In this document: piece by piece, positions 3,943-57,982 of the stretch | Layout of the letters: each line of letters begins with the position of its first letter | Position numbering within the stretch: position 1 is the stretch's first letter | From: Moniliella sp. 'wahieum' | Lineage: Eukaryota | Reading direction: 5' to 3' | Length of the DNA: 64,000 bases | Assembly (NCBI GenBank): GCA_003971905.1 | Contig: RSEE01000140.1 | Location: forward strand, 62,001 to 126,000 | The notes under the pieces: generated by a model | Databases searched by the model: none | What the model saw: the letters and a program-made list of their open reading frames with translations, nothing else | What the model was told of the DNA's origin: nothing | Translations under genes and position numbers: made by a program

Positions 3943-4692
3943 GCAGCGATGGGTGGTGCGGGGGCGGTCTGGGTATGGCTGGGCCCGCGTGGTGAGGGGG
4001 AGGAGCAGAATGGGATACGAAGCGTTCGCGTATGAGCTGTTGGCTATATAACTCTTCTCGATCTTGGCCTCGATGCTCGGTGTGGATGGGGGGGTGGCAT
4101 GAGGACAGACATAGTCACTCGTTGGTCATATCCTGTCACGTGGCCGCGTTGTGACTTTGGTTTTGTCGGCTGCCCCACCTGGCACCACTCGGGGGCTGCG
4201 ACGCGAAACGAGCGGCGGAGGCGGGGGATGGGGTGCTCCATATGGCCTGTGGAGGCGCCACAGTGGGCATGGCAATGGGCATGGCAATGGCCATGGCCAT
4301 GGAGCGCAGGATGGCATGTGGCATGTGGGGGCACACCCGCACACATGGTCCGCTGCTTCCAGTCACATGTCACGCATCAGAGTCACCGGCACCAGCCCAG
4401 GCGACATGTGACAGCCCCCATCACACGTCCATGTCACCCATCCCCTCGCCTTCTTCGCTCGTCTTGGGCAGCACCCAAATTGCAGCTGCCAAGCAAGCCG
4501 CATGCCACGCCCATCCGTTTGCCACACCCTGTCTTCTCTTGCGTCTTCTCCCCGTCGTTCGTCTTCTTCTCCGCCTCTGTCGGCTTCGCCTCCTTCTTGT
4601 TCTCCTTCTTCTTCTTCTTCTTGTTCTCCTCCTCCGCCTCGTTCTTGTTCGCCCTCCGCTTCTTCTCAAGCTCCTCCGCCCCTCTCCCCTCC

Positions 4693-7678
4693 ATGGACGC
4701 CCCCGCGTCCCCCCGCGCCGCCGCACCCATCGACGCACGTGCCCATCCCGGCGCCGCCTCGCCCCTCCTCGTCGCCCCGTCTTGCTCGCCCCCGCCTGTC
4801 CCCCTGTCCCCCACCCTCCTTGTCCCGCCCGACCTGCTCGCCCACCTGCCGCGCTCGCCCCTGCCCCCGCCGCGTGCTTCCCGCTCCTCTCGCGCCTCAG
4901 GCTCTCTGTCCTCGCCCCCACCCACCCCAAAACGCCGCACCAGCCGCTCCTTTTCCCATTGGACTCTGGGCACTGCCTGCGCACCAGCACCAGGCCCTGC
5001 CTCCACCTCTTCACGCGAGCATACCGCATCCCCCCCACCCGCCTCGGAGGACACTCCCGAGCCTGCGCCAGCCTCCACCTGCTCGACCTCCATCCCAGAC
5101 CAGCATAGCTCACATTCGCTTCCCTCCCTGGCTCCTACCCTCTCTGCCGATCATGGCAGTCAGTCCAACCGCGCTTCTCTCCCCTCCGCCCTTCCCACTT
5201 CCACTTCCGAACAGTGCCTCCCCCCAGCCTCGCCCCCGCCTCCGCCATCGTCGTCTTCGTCTCCCCCGCCCCACCCGCCCCCCCCTCTGACAAACCCCAC
5301 TGTACCAGACCTTGATCCGCTCGCGCGCGCCCGCACGAAGCCCAGCTGGCCTGGGACGAAGACCCGGGCTTTATGCCACGGGAAGACCTGGTCCTATGGC
5401 TCGGCCGACGTGCTACTGCGGCCCACTCTGCTGCCGAGGTGGCCGCCGCTCAAACTGCCTACATGGCCCATTTCGATTTCTCCCACGATCGGGTAGACGA
5501 AGCACTGCGAAAGCTCTGTGCCAAGCTGCTGCTCCGGCTGAGACACAGGTACTGGAACGAGTGCTGCAAGCGTTTGCCGTGCGCTTTCTCACTGCCCACC
5601 CTGCTTCGGACCTGTACCGTTCCGAAGAACAGGTCCACCACCTTGCGTTTAGCATTTTGCTTCTCAATACTGATCTTCATGTGGCCGACTTGGGGGAACG
5701 GATGACGCGTCCCCAGTTTGTGCGCAACACGCTCTTGGCGCTGGAAGGTGACCAGACCCCCTGTTCCTCCCACGCCGAGGTTCCCAGCGCCGCCACTGCC
5801 GATTCGCTCGACGGTACGGTTGTCGACAAGAAAAAGCGGGACGAGATGTAGCGTGGGCAACGAGGATGGAGCGACTACTGAGGGTGCGTAGTTAGTTGCC
5901 TGTCGCTCCTTCTTAACGTTTTGTATGGTGCTGACCTTGTGGTTGGATTGTGAACAGGATATCTACACGGCCTTGCGGTCCGAGCCCCCACCTACCTTCG
6001 TGGTGCGGCGATGTACTTGGTGCCCCTCCGTCCGACGCGAGCAAACACTTCGCCCGACGAAGCAGTATCCGCGGCCTGCCTTCACTTTTGACGCCCAACG
6101 CACCCAGTCGACGCTGGTCCGAGTCTGGGTTAGATGCGCGGTCGAGTGGGACACGAGCAATGGCTCCTGTTGGGTTCGTTTCCTCCTCTCCCACCAGACC
6201 TATTCCCGAAGAGCAGGATACCGAGCCGTCGACGGGCCACAAAACCGATCCCCGATTCGGAACTGGCGCTGGCGGGTGCGCCCTGGGCCAAGGAGGGCCG
6301 GCTGAGCCGCAAGTTGATGGTCCCGGGTAAACGAGGCAAAGACAAAGCGTGGACCGAAGTGTTTTCAGTTGTGCATGCTCCGGGTGTCCTGTCCTTTTTC
6401 ACCTTTGCATCTTCCCTGTCCCGCGCCACCACCGCTGTTGGCGGTGGCAACTGGGCGCTTAGTGCGGAACTGGTGGATGAGGTGGGGCTGCAACAGACTG
6501 TAGCCCAACCGGTACCGCCACCTGGGCTGGGCCGTGCTCGACCCCATGTCGTCGCCCTGCACGTGCCTGGCACCGGGAGCATGTACCTCCAAACCTCGCA
6601 TGAAGGTCTAGTGACGGAATTGTACGACCCTCAACTATTGGGCCCGCGCGTCCCAGTCGCCCCTTGCGGCCGGGGTGACGAGCGTCGATTACGGGTGGAA
6701 CGTGCTGGACCCCATTCCCCCCCCGGCTACCCCGGCCACCACTGCTACCACTGCTACCATTCCCCCCCCGGCTACCCCGGCACCACTGCTACCACTGCTA
6801 CCACTGCTACCACGGCTACCACGGCTACCCTGGCTAGTACGGCTACCACGGGGGAAGAAACGGAGAAGAAGATGCTCTGCCCCCCCAACTCCAGCAGTCC
6901 CGCCGAACCCAACGGCAGCGTGCCAATGTCTCTGTCGGTATCGACTCGAGCTCCTCTGCTTCGCTCCTCGGGCACCTCAAGCCCTCCACCACGCACACTT
7001 CGCTTACTCCCTCGGAGGAAGAGGCGCTGAGTGGGCCACCGGAGATGGTTCGATCCTTTTCCCTGTCGGTGCCCCCTCGCGCCGAGGGTTGATGACCCTG
7101 GGGTGGGGCAAGGCGTTGCGCGGGTTGGGTTCGCGCGTGGCCGGGACCGAAGCCGGCCCGGCTGCCGTGGAGTTTACTGCGTAGGGTCGAAACTGGCCCG
7201 GGGTCGCGTCCTCCTTCGCCCCTCTTCCCTACGCCTGTGCCGAGCACCGCTGCGCACGGCAAGGCGTATGCGTCGGAACACATTGCGTTGGGCACGTGGT
7301 CCCCTCCCCCTCCGCCGTTGGGACGATCGAGTTTATCGGAGCAAGAGCAGGAAAGGGCATTACGAGCGGTCGTGCTTAGCCTCGAAACGGAACTGGTTTC
7401 CCACCAGGGCTTGCGCGCCCCTTGGCCGCCCGCTTTCATCCGCGCGGACCGAATGCCTTGTTGGCCCGGACCAATTGGGAGCATAAGCTCGAGTACTTGC
7501 TAGATGAGCTGGCCAAGTACCGTACCTACGCTGCTTCCTGACCGAAGCGCGGAAGAAACGGGCGCGTCTGGTTTGGCGCGACGGAATGATCCTCGATCCA
7601 GTGGCGGAAGCCGAAGCCGAAGCGGAGGCGGGCAGTTTGGACGCACCCCATTCCGATGCGCCCGCGCTGGAACCGTAA
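4693..7678 (+). CDS. Sec7-domain plus PH-domain ARF guanine-nucleotide exchange factor (Syt1-like)
   Basis: Sec7 motifs FDFSHDRVDEALRKLC, ETQVLERVLQAFAVRF and LAFSILLLNTDLH. PH entry ELALAGAPWAKEG. C-terminal NWEHKLEYLLDELAKY. Pro/Ser-rich N-terminus, probable intron near 5885-5957. Both ends are approximate. Confidence 0.85.
6713..6850 (+). repeat. Coding tandem duplication (~45 nt) followed by 9-nt CCACTGCTA/CCACGGCTA repeats (Thr/Ala-rich linker)
   Basis: cattcccc..ggctaccccgg..caccactgctaccactgctac occurs twice, then (ccacggcta) units follow. Confidence 0.8.
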
Positions 7679-50673: not shown

Positions 50674-52563
50674 ATGAAGCTCGACGCAACCGACCTGCGC
50701 TACGTCACGCCCGACGAGTTCCGCGTGCTGAAGGCGTTTGAGCTCGGCTCGCGCAACCACGAAGTCGTCCCCACCCAGCTCGCTGCCCATCTCTCGGGCC
50801 TGCGCACGAGCAATGTGGCCAAGCTCATTTCCGAGCTGGCCAAGCGCAAACTGGTGGCGCGCGTGCAGAACGCTCGGTACGACGGGTACCGTCTGACCTA
50901 TGGCGGATACGACTTTTTGGCGGTGCGTGCGCTGTCGAAGCAGGATGTGCTCGGTGCGGTCGGGTACCGCGTCGGGGTAGGCAAGAGAGCGACATTTACA
51001 TTACCGAAGACACCGATGCCCACAAGGTCATTCTCAAGATCCACCGTCTCGGACGCATCTCCTTCCGCAATGTCAAACACAAGCGCGACTATCTTGGTAA
51101 CCGACACACCAGCAGCTGGCAATACCTCAGCAAGCTCAGCGCCAGTAAAGAGTACCTGTTCATGACGCTGCTCAAGCAGCATGGCTTCCCCGTCCCCCAA
51201 CCCCTTGGCCACAGTCGCCACGCGATCGTGATGGAGCGGATCGACTATGCGTACCCATTGCGTCAGATTGTCTCGCTTCCCGAGCGTGAGGTGGCGTCGC
51301 TCTACGCCGAGCTGATGGCGCTGATTGTGCGCCTGGCCAAGTGCGGGTTGATCCATGGTGACTTCAACAACGAATTCAACCTAATGATTCGCGAGAAGCG
51401 ACCCAGCGATTATGACGATGAGGACGGCGCCGAGATGGCATTTGAAGCCAAGCAAAAACGCGAGACCAAGCAAAGTTTGCAAAAGGCACGGGACCCATTC
51501 GAAGAGCCGGAGAACCGAAGGCCAATCGAATTGAAGCCCGGGGAACGGATTGAACAAGGCAAGGGGTTCGAAAGAGTTGTTGTCGACCAATCGGACGAGG
51601 AGGCGCAAAACTCGGAAGAGGAGAGCTCGGAAGAGGACGACGGTGACTCGGAAGACAACGAGGAGGTTGATCAATTCCCCTCCAACGACGAGGACGATGA
51701 GGACGACGAGGAAGAGGAAGAGGCACGTGCAGAAGCTGCTGCGAAAATGGCCACTGAAGCGCCCACAGTGACGATCGCGGAGGGCACCAGTGTCGAGGCT
51801 ATCTTGATTGACTTCCCTCAGATGGTCAGTGTGGAGCATGAAAATGCAGCGTACTACTTTGATCGGGACGTGGAGTGCATCAAACGCTTCTTCCGAAAGC
51901 GTTTCCGTTTCGAAGCCCAAACCTGGCCCACCTTTGCCGACACAGTTCCCCGTGATCGGGAAGCTCAACGGGTCAAACGCGAGGCACAGTATGAGGCGGC
52001 GCCAAAGCTGCTCTGCGAGCTGGGCAACCAGTTCCTGAGCCACCTGCCCGGTCGATGAGGAGGGCAACATTCAGCTTGACAAGTTGGCCGAGGCTAGCGG
52101 GTTCGGAGCTGGGGGACGTCTGGAGAAGGAACTCCAAGAGAACTTCCGCTCCCTTCGTTTGGGTGGTGGTGAGGATGGAGTACGCGCTGCTGAGGTGGCC
52201 CAGCGTCTGCATGGAGGTGTGCCGGAGCATGATGCTCCCTCAGACGAGGAGGCGCAGGTACAGGAGGAGGAGGAGGAAGAAGAGGAAGAGGAGGAAGAAC
52301 ACCTCACCCGTGCTGAAAAGCGAGCGCGCGCAGCGGAGCGCAACGCCAAGGCAGGTGTGATCCCCTCCCGTGGCGCAGCAGAGAAGGCTGCGAAGGAAGG
52401 TGATCCCAGTTTGATTGCGCTCCGGGTCGCGGCCGAGCGGGCACGCCGGGAGGCCAAAGCTGCCAAGCATCACGGCAAGAAGGCGCAAGGGTCCAAAGTC
52501 GGGCGCCGCAACGCGGGAGGCAAAGGTCGGAACGATGCGATTGCGATCGACACACAGTTTTGA
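50674..52563 (+). CDS. RIO2: Atypical kinase Rio2 (40S subunit maturation)
   Basis: MKLDATDLRY..ELGSRNHEVVP..YDGYRLTYGGYDFLA..GVGK, ILKIHRLGRISFR, LIHGDFN..EFN and IDFPQMVS..YYFDRDVECIKRFF. Confidence 0.96.
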
Positions 52564-53621
52564 GAATGCTATGTTACTGTCAGTCCGATCGACATCAGCC
52601 CACCACGGTAGATCTCGTCTGGGGGTCCATGGCCCAGCACTGGGAGATGCACTTTGAGGCACAGGCTGCTATGAAGAGAGACAGTTGGCATGTTCGAGGC
52701 TGGCTTGGTGCCTGCTTTCAAGGCGAGCGAGCCCGCCGGGCTAATTATGGCGCAGAATGTAGGAAGTGCGAGATGCGATACCAATGGGTGGCCAGGAAAG
52801 AGGTGGTCGGGATGAAGGGGAAGGGTCATTGGTTGCTAGTATGTAAACTGGTGCCGTCGTTGACGGAGGCGGACAGCATGGTATGATGACTGAGCGAACG
52901 GCGGAGGCGGGAGTGGAAGTGGGAAGAAAGAGAATGTGAATCGCCGGGCAACATAACAGGCTGTGGGTCTTGATGGGCAAGGGATGTCGAGGGCAAGGGT
53001 ATTGGGGGAAATATCGGGGTGGACGCAGTGCTGCTGCTTGGCGACAGCCCCATTGGACATGGGAGAGGGCGTCAAGGCGGCAGATGGGGGCTAAATCCTT
53101 GGGGATGTGCCAAACTACAAAGTATAATGCTACTGTTACTCCTGCCCACTGTTACGCTCCTTGTCGGCAGCCGCTGGCTTCCCCTGGACCTTGGAGAGGC
53201 GCCACCTATCCAGTGGGGAATTCAGCATGCCAGCCACCTGCTTCAGCTTAACCTCAAAGCCATCGTCACCCACATCATCCTCGTTAACGTCAACGTTATC
53301 AAGTATCCCCGTCCCTCCCTCTCTTCCAGCTCATTGCATCAGCGAATACTATTGCTTCCATAGTGCATGCAAGTCCAGTAACCGTTGCCATTCCTTACAC
53401 CGGAGAAACCCCGCTTGGTCCAAGGCATTGGCAACAATCCAATCCTGTTCACAGATCCGTCTTGGCCTCCACCGCCCCAACCAGCTCCCGCACCTTGCTC
53501 GCTGCCAACTCCGTCACCTGGTACAGCTTGGCCTTGCCCAGTTGGTAGCCCTGAACAGCGAACAGCGAAACAGGATCCTGTTCGTCCATGTAATAGTACC
53601 ACTGTCATCCCAAACACCAGG

Positions 53622-55214
53622 TCAGTACCCCAGCCCAGAAACAACCTCCAACACGAAGACATTTCCACGCACCGTAATTTCCCACGCAACCAGCGTGACC
53701 AACAGCACAGCCACAAAAAGACTATCATGTAGCAGAACATGAACCAGTACAGTTCGCGGACATCCGCTTTCTGCCGTTCCTTCCGTTTATCCTCGTCCAC
53801 CATGGCCTTAATCGTAGCCTGAGAAGTGCCTTGTGCACTCACTGACGGGTCCAACGCCAGGGCCAACGCGGTGGCGCGGCGCTCCTCGCGCATCTGCTCG
53901 ACCGCCTTGCGTCGAGACAACGCGCCCGGTGGCGCACCCCCGGCGCCGTACCGCTGTTGACCCACCACCGTAGTAGGAGGACTGACAAAGGAAGGGTAGT
54001 GCGACTCGCACCACACTTCGATTCGCGACAGTTCAACCCCCCACTCGACAAAGTTCAAGTCGTCCGGGCGAAGGCGGGCATGGATTTTCCGAGCATAGTC
54101 GCGGAAGATGTAGGCCACGTCACGATTGTTCGTGGCCGAAAGAATGAGCTGAACGGCTTGGCCCTTGCGAATCTTGAGGTTGCGCTTAAACACTGCCGGG
54201 TTGTCAAACAACAAGTCCAGTGTCGCAATCGCCATCACTTGCGGGATTGCGGCAAAGTTGAACACACTTTGTTCGTGCAGCAACGTTAGGTAGTCCAACA
54301 CATATGTCACATGGCTCATTGCGTCCAGCAGCATCGTCGACAAGACGCCCATTGTCCGCTGGCCCAGTTCCCCTTCCACCGGGCGGTACTTGCCCGTTGC
54401 GTACTCCTCCACACCCTTCGCCACCTCAGTCTGCGACGTGAACGCGCACCCGGGGCGAGACCACGCCTCGGCGGGCCAGAAGAAACGGCCTTCGTCACAG
54501 TCCTCCGCATAGTCACGGATAATGTTGGTCTTTTGAAGGTAAAGACCCATGTGGTTGGACAACCCCATTTGCTGCCCCACCAATGGTGACTCCAGCCCTG
54601 AAGCCGAGAAAAGGCGGCTCAATCCTTCGCCAACAAGACCAGCGACAAAGTGACAGTACAGGTCATAGTCGGCCCATTTCTCCACCTTGAGTGTGCCCTT
54701 GGCACCGGCCAGCTCAATGTACGACGCCATCCCGCCGCCCATCTTGGCCGTCATGTCGGCAATCACCACCTGGTACTTCTCCTCCAGCAAGCCGAACTCG
54801 CCAATGACCTTGTCAAACTCGACCAGCAGTTGGCGGTCCTTTTCGTTCGGACCGGACTCGGTGAAGGTCCAGCCGGGCTGGTACAACTTCTTGTGGAAGG
54901 AGGTGAGGAGGGGAATCTTGACCTCGGGCGCGATGGTCATGTCGTCCTCGACAGTGTCGAGCCCGCGGAGAACGAGATAGTAGATGCAGATGACGCGCGC
55001 CAGCTCGCCCTTGAGTTCCTTGATGACGGCAGAAAAGGAGCGCGAGGTGAGATCGAGGAAGTGCCAGCATTCGCGCATCTGGTCGCGGTCCCAGCCGCTG
55101 GCTTCGGGGTTGGCGGTAATGTCGTTGAGGGGGTCATGCATGAGCTTGTACTGGAGCAGGAGCGCAGCTCCCGGGATGGGTGAAGAGCAGCGCGAGAAGC
55201 TGGGATGCGCCCAT
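53622..55214 (-). CDS. ERG9: Squalene synthase (farnesyl-diphosphate farnesyltransferase)
   Basis: TSRSFSAVI, YYLVLRGLDTVEDDM, YCHFVAGLVGEGL, MGLYLQKTNIIRDY, FAAIPQVMAIATL and KIRKG, with a C-terminal membrane anchor. The stop position is approximate because of indels. Confidence 0.97.
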
Positions 55215-55938
55215 GGCGAAGAAGATGCGCGGCGGATGCGATGGGGAGGAGGTGGGGGCGCGGCGGATGTTCTGAGAGCGGGGGGCGGCAGGGCACGGGT
55301 GAGCGCACGGGTGACGGGTCACCGCACAGGTGAGGCGCCCAAAGCCTGGCCCAACAACACCCCCCATGCGCGCCCCGCCCCGCTTAGCTAATGCGCCCTC
55401 TGCTCGTCTCATATTCCTGGGCCTTCAAACCCCCGCCGTTGTTGTGACACGTGAGGTCACGCCTCGGCCTGAGGCCTGCAGCCAAGCCAGACCCATTCTT
55501 CGTCGGCGCCCAGCTCGTGTCGTACGATTGCGCCCCCCCCCGAGATGTGGGGGAGGAGGATGCAGACGATGCAGTAGAACGGTGGTTGGCTGTTGCATGT
55601 TACCATCCCAGCTCACCGGTCGTCAGCACGGTCAGTACTCAGTAGATTCACCAAAATGTGCAGTCGTCGGAACACAGTGAGGATGCTCTCCGACGCCGTT
55701 CCGCCACCTCACCACCAGAACATGAGCACTTCTTTTGGCACACCCAAAGCTCTCGATTCCGCCTCTTTTCTCTTTCCTACCGCCCTTTCCCAAAGTTGTC
55801 TGCGCACGTTTCTGTCGTCCTTTCCTAGATGAGATCGATGGTGCCAACATCGTTTCGTTTACTGCTCTCAGTCTGTATCGAATCAGCCAGAAATATTGCA
55901 TGCAGTATTTTCCTGCTACTTTGCAGTAGTCCGATATA

Positions 55939-56045
55939 GGAGGCATAGCCTAGTGGTCTATGGCATCGTATTCAAGTCATTAAGCACTTCCGCTTAAGAG
56001 TGGATGGAACTGCGACATTCGTGGGTTCGAGTCCCACTGCCTTCA
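55939..56045 (+). tRNA. Intron-containing tRNA, anticodon CAA (nominally Leu), with a short variable loop
   Basis: Acceptor GGAGGCA/TGCCTTC plus A73, D arm GCC..GGC, anticodon stem TCGTA/TGCGA with TT-CAA-G (anticodon 55973-55975), inferred intron 55977-56009, T arm GTGGG-TTCGAGT-CCCAC, and a downstream T-run Pol III terminator. Confidence 0.88.
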
Positions 56046-57982
56046 CTTTTTTGCCTTTTTTTGCTCGCCAAGTATTTTTAGCCCTGTCGTTTTTGCAGCC
56101 ACTTCGTTCGTTCACGCATGAGCTGCATGAGCGTAATTGCCGGGGGCGAGGCTGGAATGCCACATTTTGGCCTCTCCGGAACTTCCAGAGGGACGAGCCG
56201 ACGATAAAGCACAGGTGTGCGGACCTATATGGTTGTGTAATGACCCGTACATCTCGCTCCCGGGGGCGAGGCCAAGAAACGCTGAAGCGGCATCACGCAT
56301 TGTGTGATGTGCGCGTGATGTTTTTCTGACGGGGTGCCCCCGACTCCATGGGGACCACCATTGACCACCATTTCCACTTGCTGCTCTCGTGAGTTCTTCT
56401 AGGGCATCAATAGCAGGTTGGAGACCGAGGCCGAAGCTGGGCGTTTCATGTTATCTGTGACATGGTCAGCATCAGGATGCATAAACGGCTGTGGTGTTTG
56501 ATCGATAATTATCAGCGCGGGGGCACACAGATAAAGATACACGTACGTCCGGAGTCACCGCCTCTTTAGGGGTTTATTTTCGCAGTGGCCACAAGGAGCT
56601 GTTTGGGGTATTTGGGTGCGCGGGCTCTGCTGCCTACGTGCACCGATGCTGAGGGGGTTAGGGGGGCTGGGCTGGGGTGGGCCAGGCCTGGTCGTTACGC
56701 GTTAGGGGCATGGGGCTACCGAACTTCTGCCCCGTCGCAAAACGCCGATGGCAACAGTCGTTGGACGAGTGACGTTTGACACACGTCTCTTTGACAACGA
56801 TCGGCGGCCCGTCTCGTTTTAATGTTGTGGTTTTGTCGGGAGTGGGACGGTGCCAAGTAACGTTCACAGCGTGGCTCAGCGGCTCAGTGGCTCAGCACTC
56901 AGATACTACTCAACGCTCAGGCATCAAGCACAACGCTGCTCGAGGTTCAACCGACCAATGCGCTCAGGCTGCCGAACATGATTGACGTCCGACGTACGTT
57001 GTGGGGGCTAAGAGCGTCTATAAAAACCTGCCTCTCTCAGCTTTCAAGAATCGGCGCGCATCCCTTCCCCACCCACTACCCGCTATACCTTTCCCAGCAG
57101 CCTACCGCCCTCACTGTCTCCCGCTACTCATCTATTGACCCCCCACGCGATGCACTCGACTTCCCGTTGCTCCCTGTTAACGTACGCCCATCGCCCTCTG
57201 CTTCGCTCTAGGCGCGGCATGTGCGGTTGAACAAGTACTAAAATCCCTCGTTCTGGCCAGATGGCTGCCCCACTGGCCTGCCACGGCTGCAGCTTCACCA
57301 ACTTGGCTTCAAACTGGAGCGGAAAATGTGGCAATGCATGCGGTGCGGTCCTTCACTACGACCAATAAGCCCTTGTGGCTTTGTACCGCATTCGTTGCAG
57401 TCGTCTTTGTGCGCGTATGGGTATTCCGCATGAGGCTCATTGACTCATCAACGCCCGCCTTGGTCAAGCTGCACCTGCCCCTGGTCGGGGACGTGCGGTT
57501 TGCCGGCCAGCGTAGGACGCCGTTTTGTGCTGTGCGCAACTGCCACCCCATGTCCCAAAAACCTCCCGATGTACTTTGGTTGGCTCTGAAGGTTCCACCA
57601 CTAATCGTACCTCGTTATGAGGGTCTGGAGTCATCGTAGTTCGCTTTGTTCCCCATCATATTTCCCATCAGTGGCAGAGGCAAACGGTCGGTAGCCTCAG
57701 ATCCGTGCAGGATACGGTCCATGGGAGTATGCAGAGATGAATTGCATGGCTTGAGCCCCTGCCTCGCCCATACAGAGCGGGCATGGACGGTATCAGCAAA
57801 ATGGAGCAGACAAAAGGGAGCTTGTACGAAGAGCAATGATGACGGCCGCCCAGGAGGCGAGGCGCAATAGAACAGAACGTTGCGCACCTAGGTTTACCGG
57901 CCCGATCCATTCGCCTTGGTCATACGAATACTGGGCGCGACCAAGGGTGTCATCGTCGCCGCAATTCGACCTGGGTTGGGAC

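Follow-up and report, generated by a model that had tools for sequence, protein, structure and literature searches.

The described genes closest to the one analysed here are the canonical tRNA-Leu(CAA) genes, among them LeuCAA1-7 of C. elegans (as printed in PMC4536317) and the human tRNA-Leu-CAA-2-1 (as printed in PMC10359600), which combine the anticodon CAA with G37 and the discriminator A73. In the printed genes the worm intron measures 32-38 nt and follows G37 (PMC4536317), the variable region is 15 nt long with a 4-bp stem, positions 13 and 22 are G and A, and position 26 is G. Leucine tRNAs without a long variable arm have been described as well. Type I tRNA-Leu in eukaryotes is given as limited to mitochondria (PMC6614811, PMC9976931), and the animal mitochondrial tRNA-Leu(UUR), which is encoded in mtDNA and served by a separate mitochondrial leucyl-tRNA synthetase (LeuRS), is reported to be recognised mainly via A73 and A14 (PMC9976931). 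The type I tRNA-Leu(CAA) of the bacterium Streptomyces coelicolor (Fan et al. 2019, PMC6614811) is intron-less, and its charging was shown experimentally; according to that paper, at least 5 nt including nt 48 are needed in the variable loop for good charging, A73 is not an identity element, the leucine-specific domain of LeuRS is required, and type I and long-arm leucine tRNAs share one compartment and a single LeuRS. A nuclear human gene, Leu-CAA-5-1, also has CAA without a long variable arm; it is a tRNA-Met body with U36A that differs from Met-CAT-3-1 by 7 changes, and it is presumed silent.

Within the window (the whole 64-kb stretch of DNA that was analysed), the tRNA gene at 55939-56045 resembles each of these in part. 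With the canonical genes it shares CAA, G37 and A73, and its intron of 33 nt falls within the range of the worm introns, but its variable region has 5 nt instead of 15, it has U.U at 13/22 and A at 26, and its acceptor and anticodon stems are unrelated in sequence to those of the genes printed in the two sources. Since the defining long arm of the family is missing, we do not file the gene as an ordinary tRNA-Leu(CAA) member. With the S. coelicolor tRNA it has in common CAA on a class I body and a 5-nt loop ending in C48 (A44 C45 A46 G47 C48 in S. coelicolor, PMC6614811; C44 A45 U46 U47 C48 in the window), whereas the window gene is intron-bearing and its charging is a prediction. Because its body resembles eukaryotic type II tRNA-Leu, the likeness to S. 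coelicolor is more likely convergent and of independent origin. Nuclear RNA polymerase III signals and a nuclear-type intron set the gene apart from mitochondrial tRNA-Leu(UUR), and a leucine-type body sets it apart from human Leu-CAA-5-1.

Gene anatomy and the intron hairpin

The locus is a genuine tRNA gene, far beyond chance. Rfam RF00005 matches 55939-56045 with 48.6 bits (gathering score 29, E = 2.4e-07) over the whole model (positions 1-71 of 71) and places an insert of 36 nt in the anticodon loop; this is the sole Rfam match within the window. ARAGORN in its default mode reports zero tRNAs at 55939-56045, because introns are switched off by default. The gene had been pointed out in a preliminary description, and on re-reading the sequence we found the coordinates and letters given there to be correct throughout. 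Its features are the following:

55939-56045, + strand: tRNA gene (Rfam RF00005 match and RNA polymerase III signals)
55939-55945, + strand: acceptor stem 5' strand, nt 1-7; 7/7 pairs with 56038-56044, G2.U71 included (Rfam, ARAGORN, folds)
55946-55956, + strand: RNA polymerase III A box, nt 8-18, TAGCCTAGTGG; agrees throughout with the consensus TRGYNNARNNG
55948-55964, + strand: D arm, with a 3-bp stem GCC/GGC and a U13.U22 mismatch
55966-55970, + strand: anticodon stem 5' strand TCGTA, nt 27-31 (Rfam, partner listing, folds)
55971-55976, + strand: anticodon loop nt 32-37, U32 U33 C34 A35 A36 G37 (Rfam, ARAGORN)
55973-55975, + strand: anticodon CAA (Rfam, ARAGORN), with G37 at 55976
55977-56009, + strand: intron of 33 nt at the canonical 37/38 position, with predicted splice junctions (precursor MFE, Rfam insert)
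55989-56004, + strand: hairpin TCCGC-TTAAGA-GTGGA inside the intron (sequence), unused in the best precursor fold
56010-56015, + strand: C38, then the anticodon stem 3' strand TGCGA, nt 39-43; 5/5 pairs with TCGTA, one of them G.U
56016-56020, + strand: variable loop CATTC (C44 A45 U46 U47 C48), 5 nt (Rfam, spliced-product fold)
56021-56037, + strand: T arm GTGGG-TTCGAGT-CCCAC (sequence, Rfam)
56024-56034, + strand: B box inside the T arm; agrees throughout with the consensus RGTTCRANTCC
56038-56045, + strand: acceptor stem 3' strand, then the discriminator A73 at 56045 (sequence, Rfam)
56047-56052, + strand: RNA polymerase III terminator T6, starting two bases past the discriminator (sequence)
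56056-56062, + strand: second T run, T7 (sequence)

The consensus sequences of the two boxes, TRGYNNARNNG and RGTTCRANTCC, are those given in PMC11028032. With its A box, B box and T-run terminator, 55939-56045 resembles a complete RNA polymerase III gene. In the precursor MFE structure, the final intron bases GAA pair with U32 U33 C34, which is the usual type of anticodon-intron helix. The D loop holds G18 G19 U20 C20a U20b, and C48 of the variable loop is able to pair with G15. We place the intron after nt 37 because this is the eukaryotic rule and the position seen in the ten worm genes printed in PMC4536317.

With respect to the intron, the preliminary description had pointed to a hairpin resembling a second anticodon arm (UAA). 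The hairpin exists at 55989-56004, but its reading as an anticodon arm is not supported, the fold being at the level of chance: the intron folds at -7.1 kcal/mol (z = -1.5), with 15 of 200 shuffles equal or better. Forcing the hairpin onto the precursor costs 2.6 kcal/mol, and its pair probability in the precursor ensemble is about 0.04. A true (UAA) arm at this place would imply that 23 nt are inserted between nt 26 and 27, that the loop has 6 nt and that one more T belongs in the sequence; this T is missing from the independent contig described below, and we have rejected this candidate. A small hairpin (cctc-aagttc-gagg, with cttc/gaag in LeuCAA2) can be found by eye in all seven worm Leu(CAA) introns printed in PMC4536317, so that a hairpin in such an intron is ordinary.

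Class I and class II folds

Folded without constraints, the 107-nt precursor has an MFE structure that agrees with Rfam on a TCGTA/TGCGA stem, a 33-nt intron, a 5-nt CATTC loop and the anticodon CAA. When introns are allowed, ARAGORN instead pairs TCGTA with TAAGA (55995-55999), accepting a G.A mismatch, and draws a 17-nt intron and a 21-nt, weakly paired arm, again with CAA; when forced to long introns, it returns the class I stem and the 5-nt loop with the 33-nt intron slid to 34/35, and names the product 'Ser(cga)'. We reject 'Ser(cga)' because the printed eukaryotic genes have their intron after nt 37 and because A73 is not the serine discriminator according to PMC9976931.

From a listing of all possible partners of TCGTA, we observe that only one is perfect (5/5), namely TGCGA at 56011-56015, while three pair at 4/5 (at 55995, 55999 and 56003, corresponding to variable regions of 21, 17 and 13 nt). 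TGCGA had been presented earlier as the sole partner, which is true of perfect pairing but overlooks these three. We shuffled the 44 nt that separate G37 from the T stem 20,000 times, preserving dinucleotides: TCGTA meets a perfect partner at the class I position in 1.5% of the shuffles, and one of at least 4/5 at some class II position in 76%. Given a real class I fold, chance would thus be enough to produce the class II drawings, whereas the converse does not hold.

The gene could still be an ordinary class II tRNA-Leu(CAA) that has been misdrawn, either with a 17-nt intron (55977-55993) and a 21-nt arm or with a 25-nt intron (55977-56001) and a 13-nt arm, AACTGCGACATTC. The prior for a long arm in a leucine tRNA is very high (PMC9976931), and the first version is the one that ARAGORN reports with introns allowed, whereas in the second the 13 nt ahead of the T stem can form a stem of three out of four pairs with a 3-nt loop, its first strand ACTG resembling, by eye, ACTC of the worm arm. 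Each version, however, comes with a defective anticodon stem (a G.A mismatch in one, two G.U pairs and an A.G mismatch in the other), the 4/5 partner on which it depends is expected by chance at the frequency given above, and an arm of 21 nt exceeds the 15 nt of the Leu genes printed in PMC10359600 and PMC4536317. The energies point the same way. The class I precursor reaches -36.3 kcal/mol as the unconstrained MFE (-34.5 kcal/mol once a 3-nt bulge is imposed on the 3' splice site), against -30.5 kcal/mol when constrained to the 13-nt-arm version and -26.8 kcal/mol when constrained to the 21-nt-arm version of ARAGORN, which puts these two 5.8 and 9.5 kcal/mol above it. Pair probabilities over the precursor ensemble are just 0.39-0.47 for the class I stem and 0 for the ARAGORN stem. 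After splicing, the 74-nt class I product shows anticodon-stem pair probabilities of 0.78-0.94 and has the cloverleaf as its MFE structure (a gap of 2.2 kcal/mol comes only from a variant of the D stem), whereas the anticodon stem has a probability of 0 in the 13-nt-arm product, with the cloverleaf lying 14.2 kcal/mol above the MFE, and of 0.03-0.07 in the 21-nt-arm product, with the cloverleaf 4.4 kcal/mol above the MFE. The stems that the class II versions require stay at 0 and at most 0.07 because, in both spliced products, TGCGA captures the 5' strand TCGTA. We consider a misdrawn class II tRNA improbable.

As modelled, the only self-consistent and stable fold of 55939-56045 is class I, with CAA and a 5-nt variable loop, and it lacks the arm expected of a type II tRNA-Leu, which has a stem and is longer than 10 nt. 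The 33-nt intron, the CATTC loop and the 74-nt product that had been proposed from the sequence are all confirmed, as predictions, by Rfam and the folds, and we hold the class I shape to be highly probable.

Leucine-type body, UUG codons and a possible second copy

Sequences for comparison were found with a 9-nt D-loop motif from the window and compared by eye. In this by-eye comparison, 15 of the 17 D-arm positions agree with worm and human Leu(CAA), the exceptions being 13 and 22, and 16 of the 17 T-arm positions agree with worm and human Leu, the exception being 59; for the T arm of human Ser-AGA, as printed in PMC10359600, the figure is 12 of 17. The sequence GCC-GAGTGGTCTAA-GGC is given as the D arm for the seven C. 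elegans Leu(CAA) genes (PMC4536317) and for human tRNA-Leu-CAA-2-1, -AAG and -CAG (PMC10359600), and likewise in a human pre-tRNA-Leu primer in PMC9212997; the same worm and human Leu genes have the T arm GTGGG-TTCGAAT-CCCAC (PMC4536317, PMC10359600). A73 and the CAAG of the anticodon loop are common to the window gene and the printed Leu(CAA) genes, while at U13.U22 and A26 the window gene differs from the Leu genes in print. The marks of a tRNA-Leu, namely the leucine anticodon CAA, G37 and A73, are all present, as is the 3-bp D stem, and the leucine-type character that had been ascribed to the D arm and A73 holds by eye. Scoring the D arm against 108 mostly prokaryotic tRNAs gave Cys on top (11), followed by Lys, Leu and Glu (9), a ranking that is uninformative for a eukaryote. 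Judged by these comparisons, the body of 55939-56045 is leucine-type and not that of another isotype with a mutated anticodon. The gene probably descends from an ordinary intron-bearing tRNA-Leu(CAA) and has lost the long variable arm.

We furthermore looked at what UUG encodes in this fungus. TTG makes up 59 of the 257 Leu codons in six ORFs. Residues 54-445 of a squalene synthase ORF (53339-55318, minus strand) were aligned with 120 basidiomycete homologues, and 8 of the 11 TTG columns have a leucine majority (mean leucine fraction 0.61), as have 27 of the 35 columns with other Leu codons (mean 0.73; Mann-Whitney, p = 0.27), a comparison of homologue columns that is blind to low-level mistranslation by a minor tRNA. 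Leucines encoded by TTG include L341 (leucine in 119/119 homologues), L253 (116) and L233 (108), and the three TTG columns without a leucine majority have W, C/M and P majorities, with no common substitute. In a RIO2 kinase ORF, the leucine of the catalytic-loop motif GLIHGDFN is also encoded by TTG. These columns and motifs indicate that UUG means leucine in this fungus.

The squalene synthase gene adjoins the tRNA gene. Its nearest named homologue is that of Tilletiaria anomala (72% identity), with Pseudozyma, Sporisorium and Ustilago at 70-71% and four further proteins at 79-86%; these homologues fit a smut-related basidiomycete. A stop-to-stop ORF map of the window contains many overlapping, broken frames.

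The only public run sharing words with the locus is an insect-gut metagenome run, X1 (0.04 of 50 sampled words), whose reads on the window give one 164-nt contig at depth 3. This contig starts 3' of most of the 5' exon and spans the intron, C38, TGCGA, CATTC, the T arm and the acceptor 3' strand, aligning to 55976-56051 with 2 substitutions and 0 gaps; past this stretch, it continues with 88 nt that are unlike the downstream flank in the window. Since no indel separates the two sequences, the short variable loop is not an assembly error, and the different flank means that the arm-less 3' half belongs to a second copy or to the gene of a related fungus. The idea that the TTAAGA loop of the intron hairpin is one T short in a deletion-prone assembly finds no support in the same contig, in which the 6-nt loop recurs without a gap. 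tRNA-derived repeats of the Serpula Ser(UGA) kind are told by many identical copies whose flanks are identical too; here, the sole other copy diverges right after the terminator, and one flank of one copy is what can be seen.

Searches for further relatives returned little. A metagenome scan for the exact D arm together with CAA found 0 loci, and a pattern running from the anticodon to the T arm found at least 117; among the matches listed, none shares more than 17-19 nt with the gene by BLAST, in the T arm only, and ARAGORN recognised 108 tRNAs at those loci, 3 of which are intron-less class II Leu(caa). The class I junction had 0 matches in genome contigs and 0 in viral contigs, and the D-arm and 3'-end strings of the gene had no match in published literature texts. 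In the literature we found no account of an arm-less tRNA-Leu that has a Leu body and is encoded in a eukaryotic nucleus, though supplementary files may list such genes.

Charging, rival readings and significance

In the mechanism that we propose, RNA polymerase III would transcribe 55939-56045, and the splicing endonuclease would cut at 55976/55977 and 56009/56010, after which the halves would be ligated into a 74-nt class I tRNA (77 nt after CCA addition) with a mature loop of U32 U33 C34 A35 A36 G37 followed by C38. The cytoplasmic LeuRS would charge this tRNA via A73, G37 and the D/T-loop elbow, with the arm unneeded, and UUG would be read as leucine, with this tRNA either joining conventional long-arm ones or replacing them. 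For yeast tRNA-Leu, A73, G37, G18 and nt 55 are reported as the strong determinants in vivo (PMC3488233, PMC9976931); all of them are found in the window gene, and so are C20a and G5:C68, listed among the elements for human LeuRS (PMC6614811). Both the E. coli and the human enzyme accept arm-less minimal substrates for leucylation (PMC9976931). Taken with the S. coelicolor type I precedent, these observations make leucylation the likeliest fate of the tRNA. On the other side, the long arm is described as a major recognition element for human LeuRS (PMC11028032), and for yeast it is termed 'crucial', in a structural sense (PMC3488233). Among the three readings put forward in the preliminary description, an arm-less tRNA-Leu is the best supported, through the class I fold, the leucine-type D and T arms, A73 and G37, whereas the UAA arm is rejected; we give a leucine-accepting UUG decoder without the long arm, as predicted from sequence and folds, roughly an even chance of being correct.

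Of the rival explanations, a decaying or crippled copy weighs most, and we regard it as rather unlikely. It would have arisen through a deletion of about 10 nt in the variable arm and would perhaps be transcribed, but poorly charged or cleared by quality control, with conventional genes decoding UUG. In line with this, a long arm is reported for tRNA-Leu in all eukaryotic cytoplasms (PMC6614811, PMC9976931), earlier class I-shaped 'Leu' or 'Ser' predictions in eukaryotes proved silent or repeat-derived, and U13.U22 and A26 set the gene apart from the printed Leu genes. Everything but the arm is nevertheless intact (acceptor stem 7/7, anticodon stem 5/5, T stem 5/5, both promoter boxes and the terminator), and the 5-nt loop with C48 has the exact length of a working class I core as described in PMC6614811. 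Furthermore, the arm-less 3' half recurs together with the intron beside a different flank, a pattern that the tRNAscan-SE authors assign to real genes as opposed to repeats.

An altered identity, under which the tRNA would have lost the arm as a shield, be partly charged with another amino acid and cause low-level mistranslation of UUG, had also been suggested. The long arm is indeed described as an anti-determinant against non-cognate synthetases (PMC11028032), and anticodon and charging are reported to disagree in human Leu-CAA-5-1 and the nematode nev-tRNAs. The acceptor stem carries G2.U71 with A73. This is one step from the identity mark of alanine, which is G3.U70. The TTG columns, however, hold leucine as often as the columns of other Leu codons and show no common substitute, invariant leucines are written with TTG (L341 in 119/119 homologues and the leucine of GLIHGDFN in RIO2), the D and T arms are Leu-type, and we know of no synthetase outside the leucine system for which CAA is an anticodon mark. 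With TTG columns that are ordinary for leucine and a body that is not another isotype's, this reading is conceivable for a minor tRNA species, and as a whole we judge it improbable. Least probable of all, and by our estimate very improbable, is a tRNA-like RNA employed for something other than translation, for example as a source of fragments, a retroelement primer or an RNA polymerase III boundary element: no retroelement feature is seen beside the gene, and U33, G37, the T loop, A73 and a 7-nt loop after splicing have been kept, though they are needless for such roles.

If the gene is instead a leucine-accepting tRNA, the arm was possibly lost when a new anticodon-stem 3' strand arose within the old arm. 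As a consequence, the 3' splice site would have shifted downstream, and the old strand and half of the arm would have become part of the intron. The evidence consists of one gene and the 3' part of a second copy, and on this basis we put forward, tentatively and at less than even chances, that an arm-less tRNA-Leu(CAA) is a working, perhaps the main, cytoplasmic UUG decoder in a smut-related fungal lineage.

Were the gene a relic, it would be a clean example for annotators of a Leu(CAA) call that looks intact and for which programs give three different drawings. If the proposed reading is true, it would be the first eukaryotic cytoplasmic leucine tRNA without a long arm, and a eukaryotic LeuRS would accept both tRNA shapes, like the Streptomyces enzyme. 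PMC6614811 and PMC9976931 take the long arm of tRNA-Leu to be universal except in animal mitochondria, and PMC11028032 describes it as helping eukaryotic LeuRS and other enzymes to discriminate class II tRNAs. A working gene would mean that the arm is dispensable in vivo for a eukaryotic cytoplasmic LeuRS, would offer a natural test case for the role of the arm in charging, editing, modification and protection from mischarging, and would reveal one route by which a tRNA can change class.

Open reading frames surrounding the tRNA gene and lineage of the fungus

Across the whole window we observe 71 ORFs that span 200 codons or more from stop to stop, and many of them overlap one another in different frames of the same strand (e.g., 4036-5496, 4155-5108, and 4412-5290), a pattern that fits frequent 1-nt indel errors in the assembly. 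Two of the protein-coding ORFs were characterized by homology:

50742-52058, + strand, RIO2 kinase ORF (alignment to solved Rio2 structures)
53339-55318, - strand, squalene synthase ORF (intact, 659 codons stop to stop)

When the RIO2 kinase ORF is aligned with solved Rio2 structures, two separate stretches match, residues 81-223 and 351-400, and their counterparts in homologues are almost adjoining (107-245 and 252-302 of 4gyg), indicating that approximately 125 extra in-frame residues, part of which form a run of acidic residues (275-323), interrupt the kinase domain. Either these residues have been inserted into the protein, or they result from reading in frame through an unspliced intron. 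The squalene synthase ORF starts approximately 620 bp away from the tRNA gene. Because its top named homologue, from Tilletiaria anomala, shows only 72% identity, versus 79 to 86% for four proteins from public read assemblies, sequence comparison places the source fungus in a Ustilaginomycotina lineage that lacks a named genome in the collection searched.

Edge of the matching metagenomic contig

The sole matching public contig, from an insect-gut metagenome run (X1), ends exactly on G37, the final base of the 5' exon of the tRNA gene (window position 55976; record position 164/164). At a depth of 3, this stop may be a coverage dead end. Alternatively, it could reflect a branch in the assembly graph, with gene copies that have the intron in common and diverge immediately 5' of it, within or next to the anticodon.

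Possible remnant of the variable arm and conflicting software calls

Directly 5' of the T stem lies a segment for which a small stem-loop can be proposed:

56008-56020, + strand, 13 nt, AACTGCGACATTC, drawable as ACTG-CGA-CATT

When compared by eye, its first strand, ACTG, is similar to the ACTC of the variable arm in tRNA-Leu genes of Caenorhabditis elegans. The segment may be the remainder of the lost arm, reused as C38, the 3' strand of the anticodon stem, and the variable loop.

At 55939-56046, ARAGORN reported no tRNA with default settings; the -i option yielded Leu(caa), drawn with a long arm and a 17-nt intron, and -i25,60 yielded Ser(cga), drawn with a 33-nt intron, whereas Rfam gave a class I fold (short variable loop). 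Annotators should be aware that ARAGORN settings and Rfam disagree on one and the same tRNA gene.
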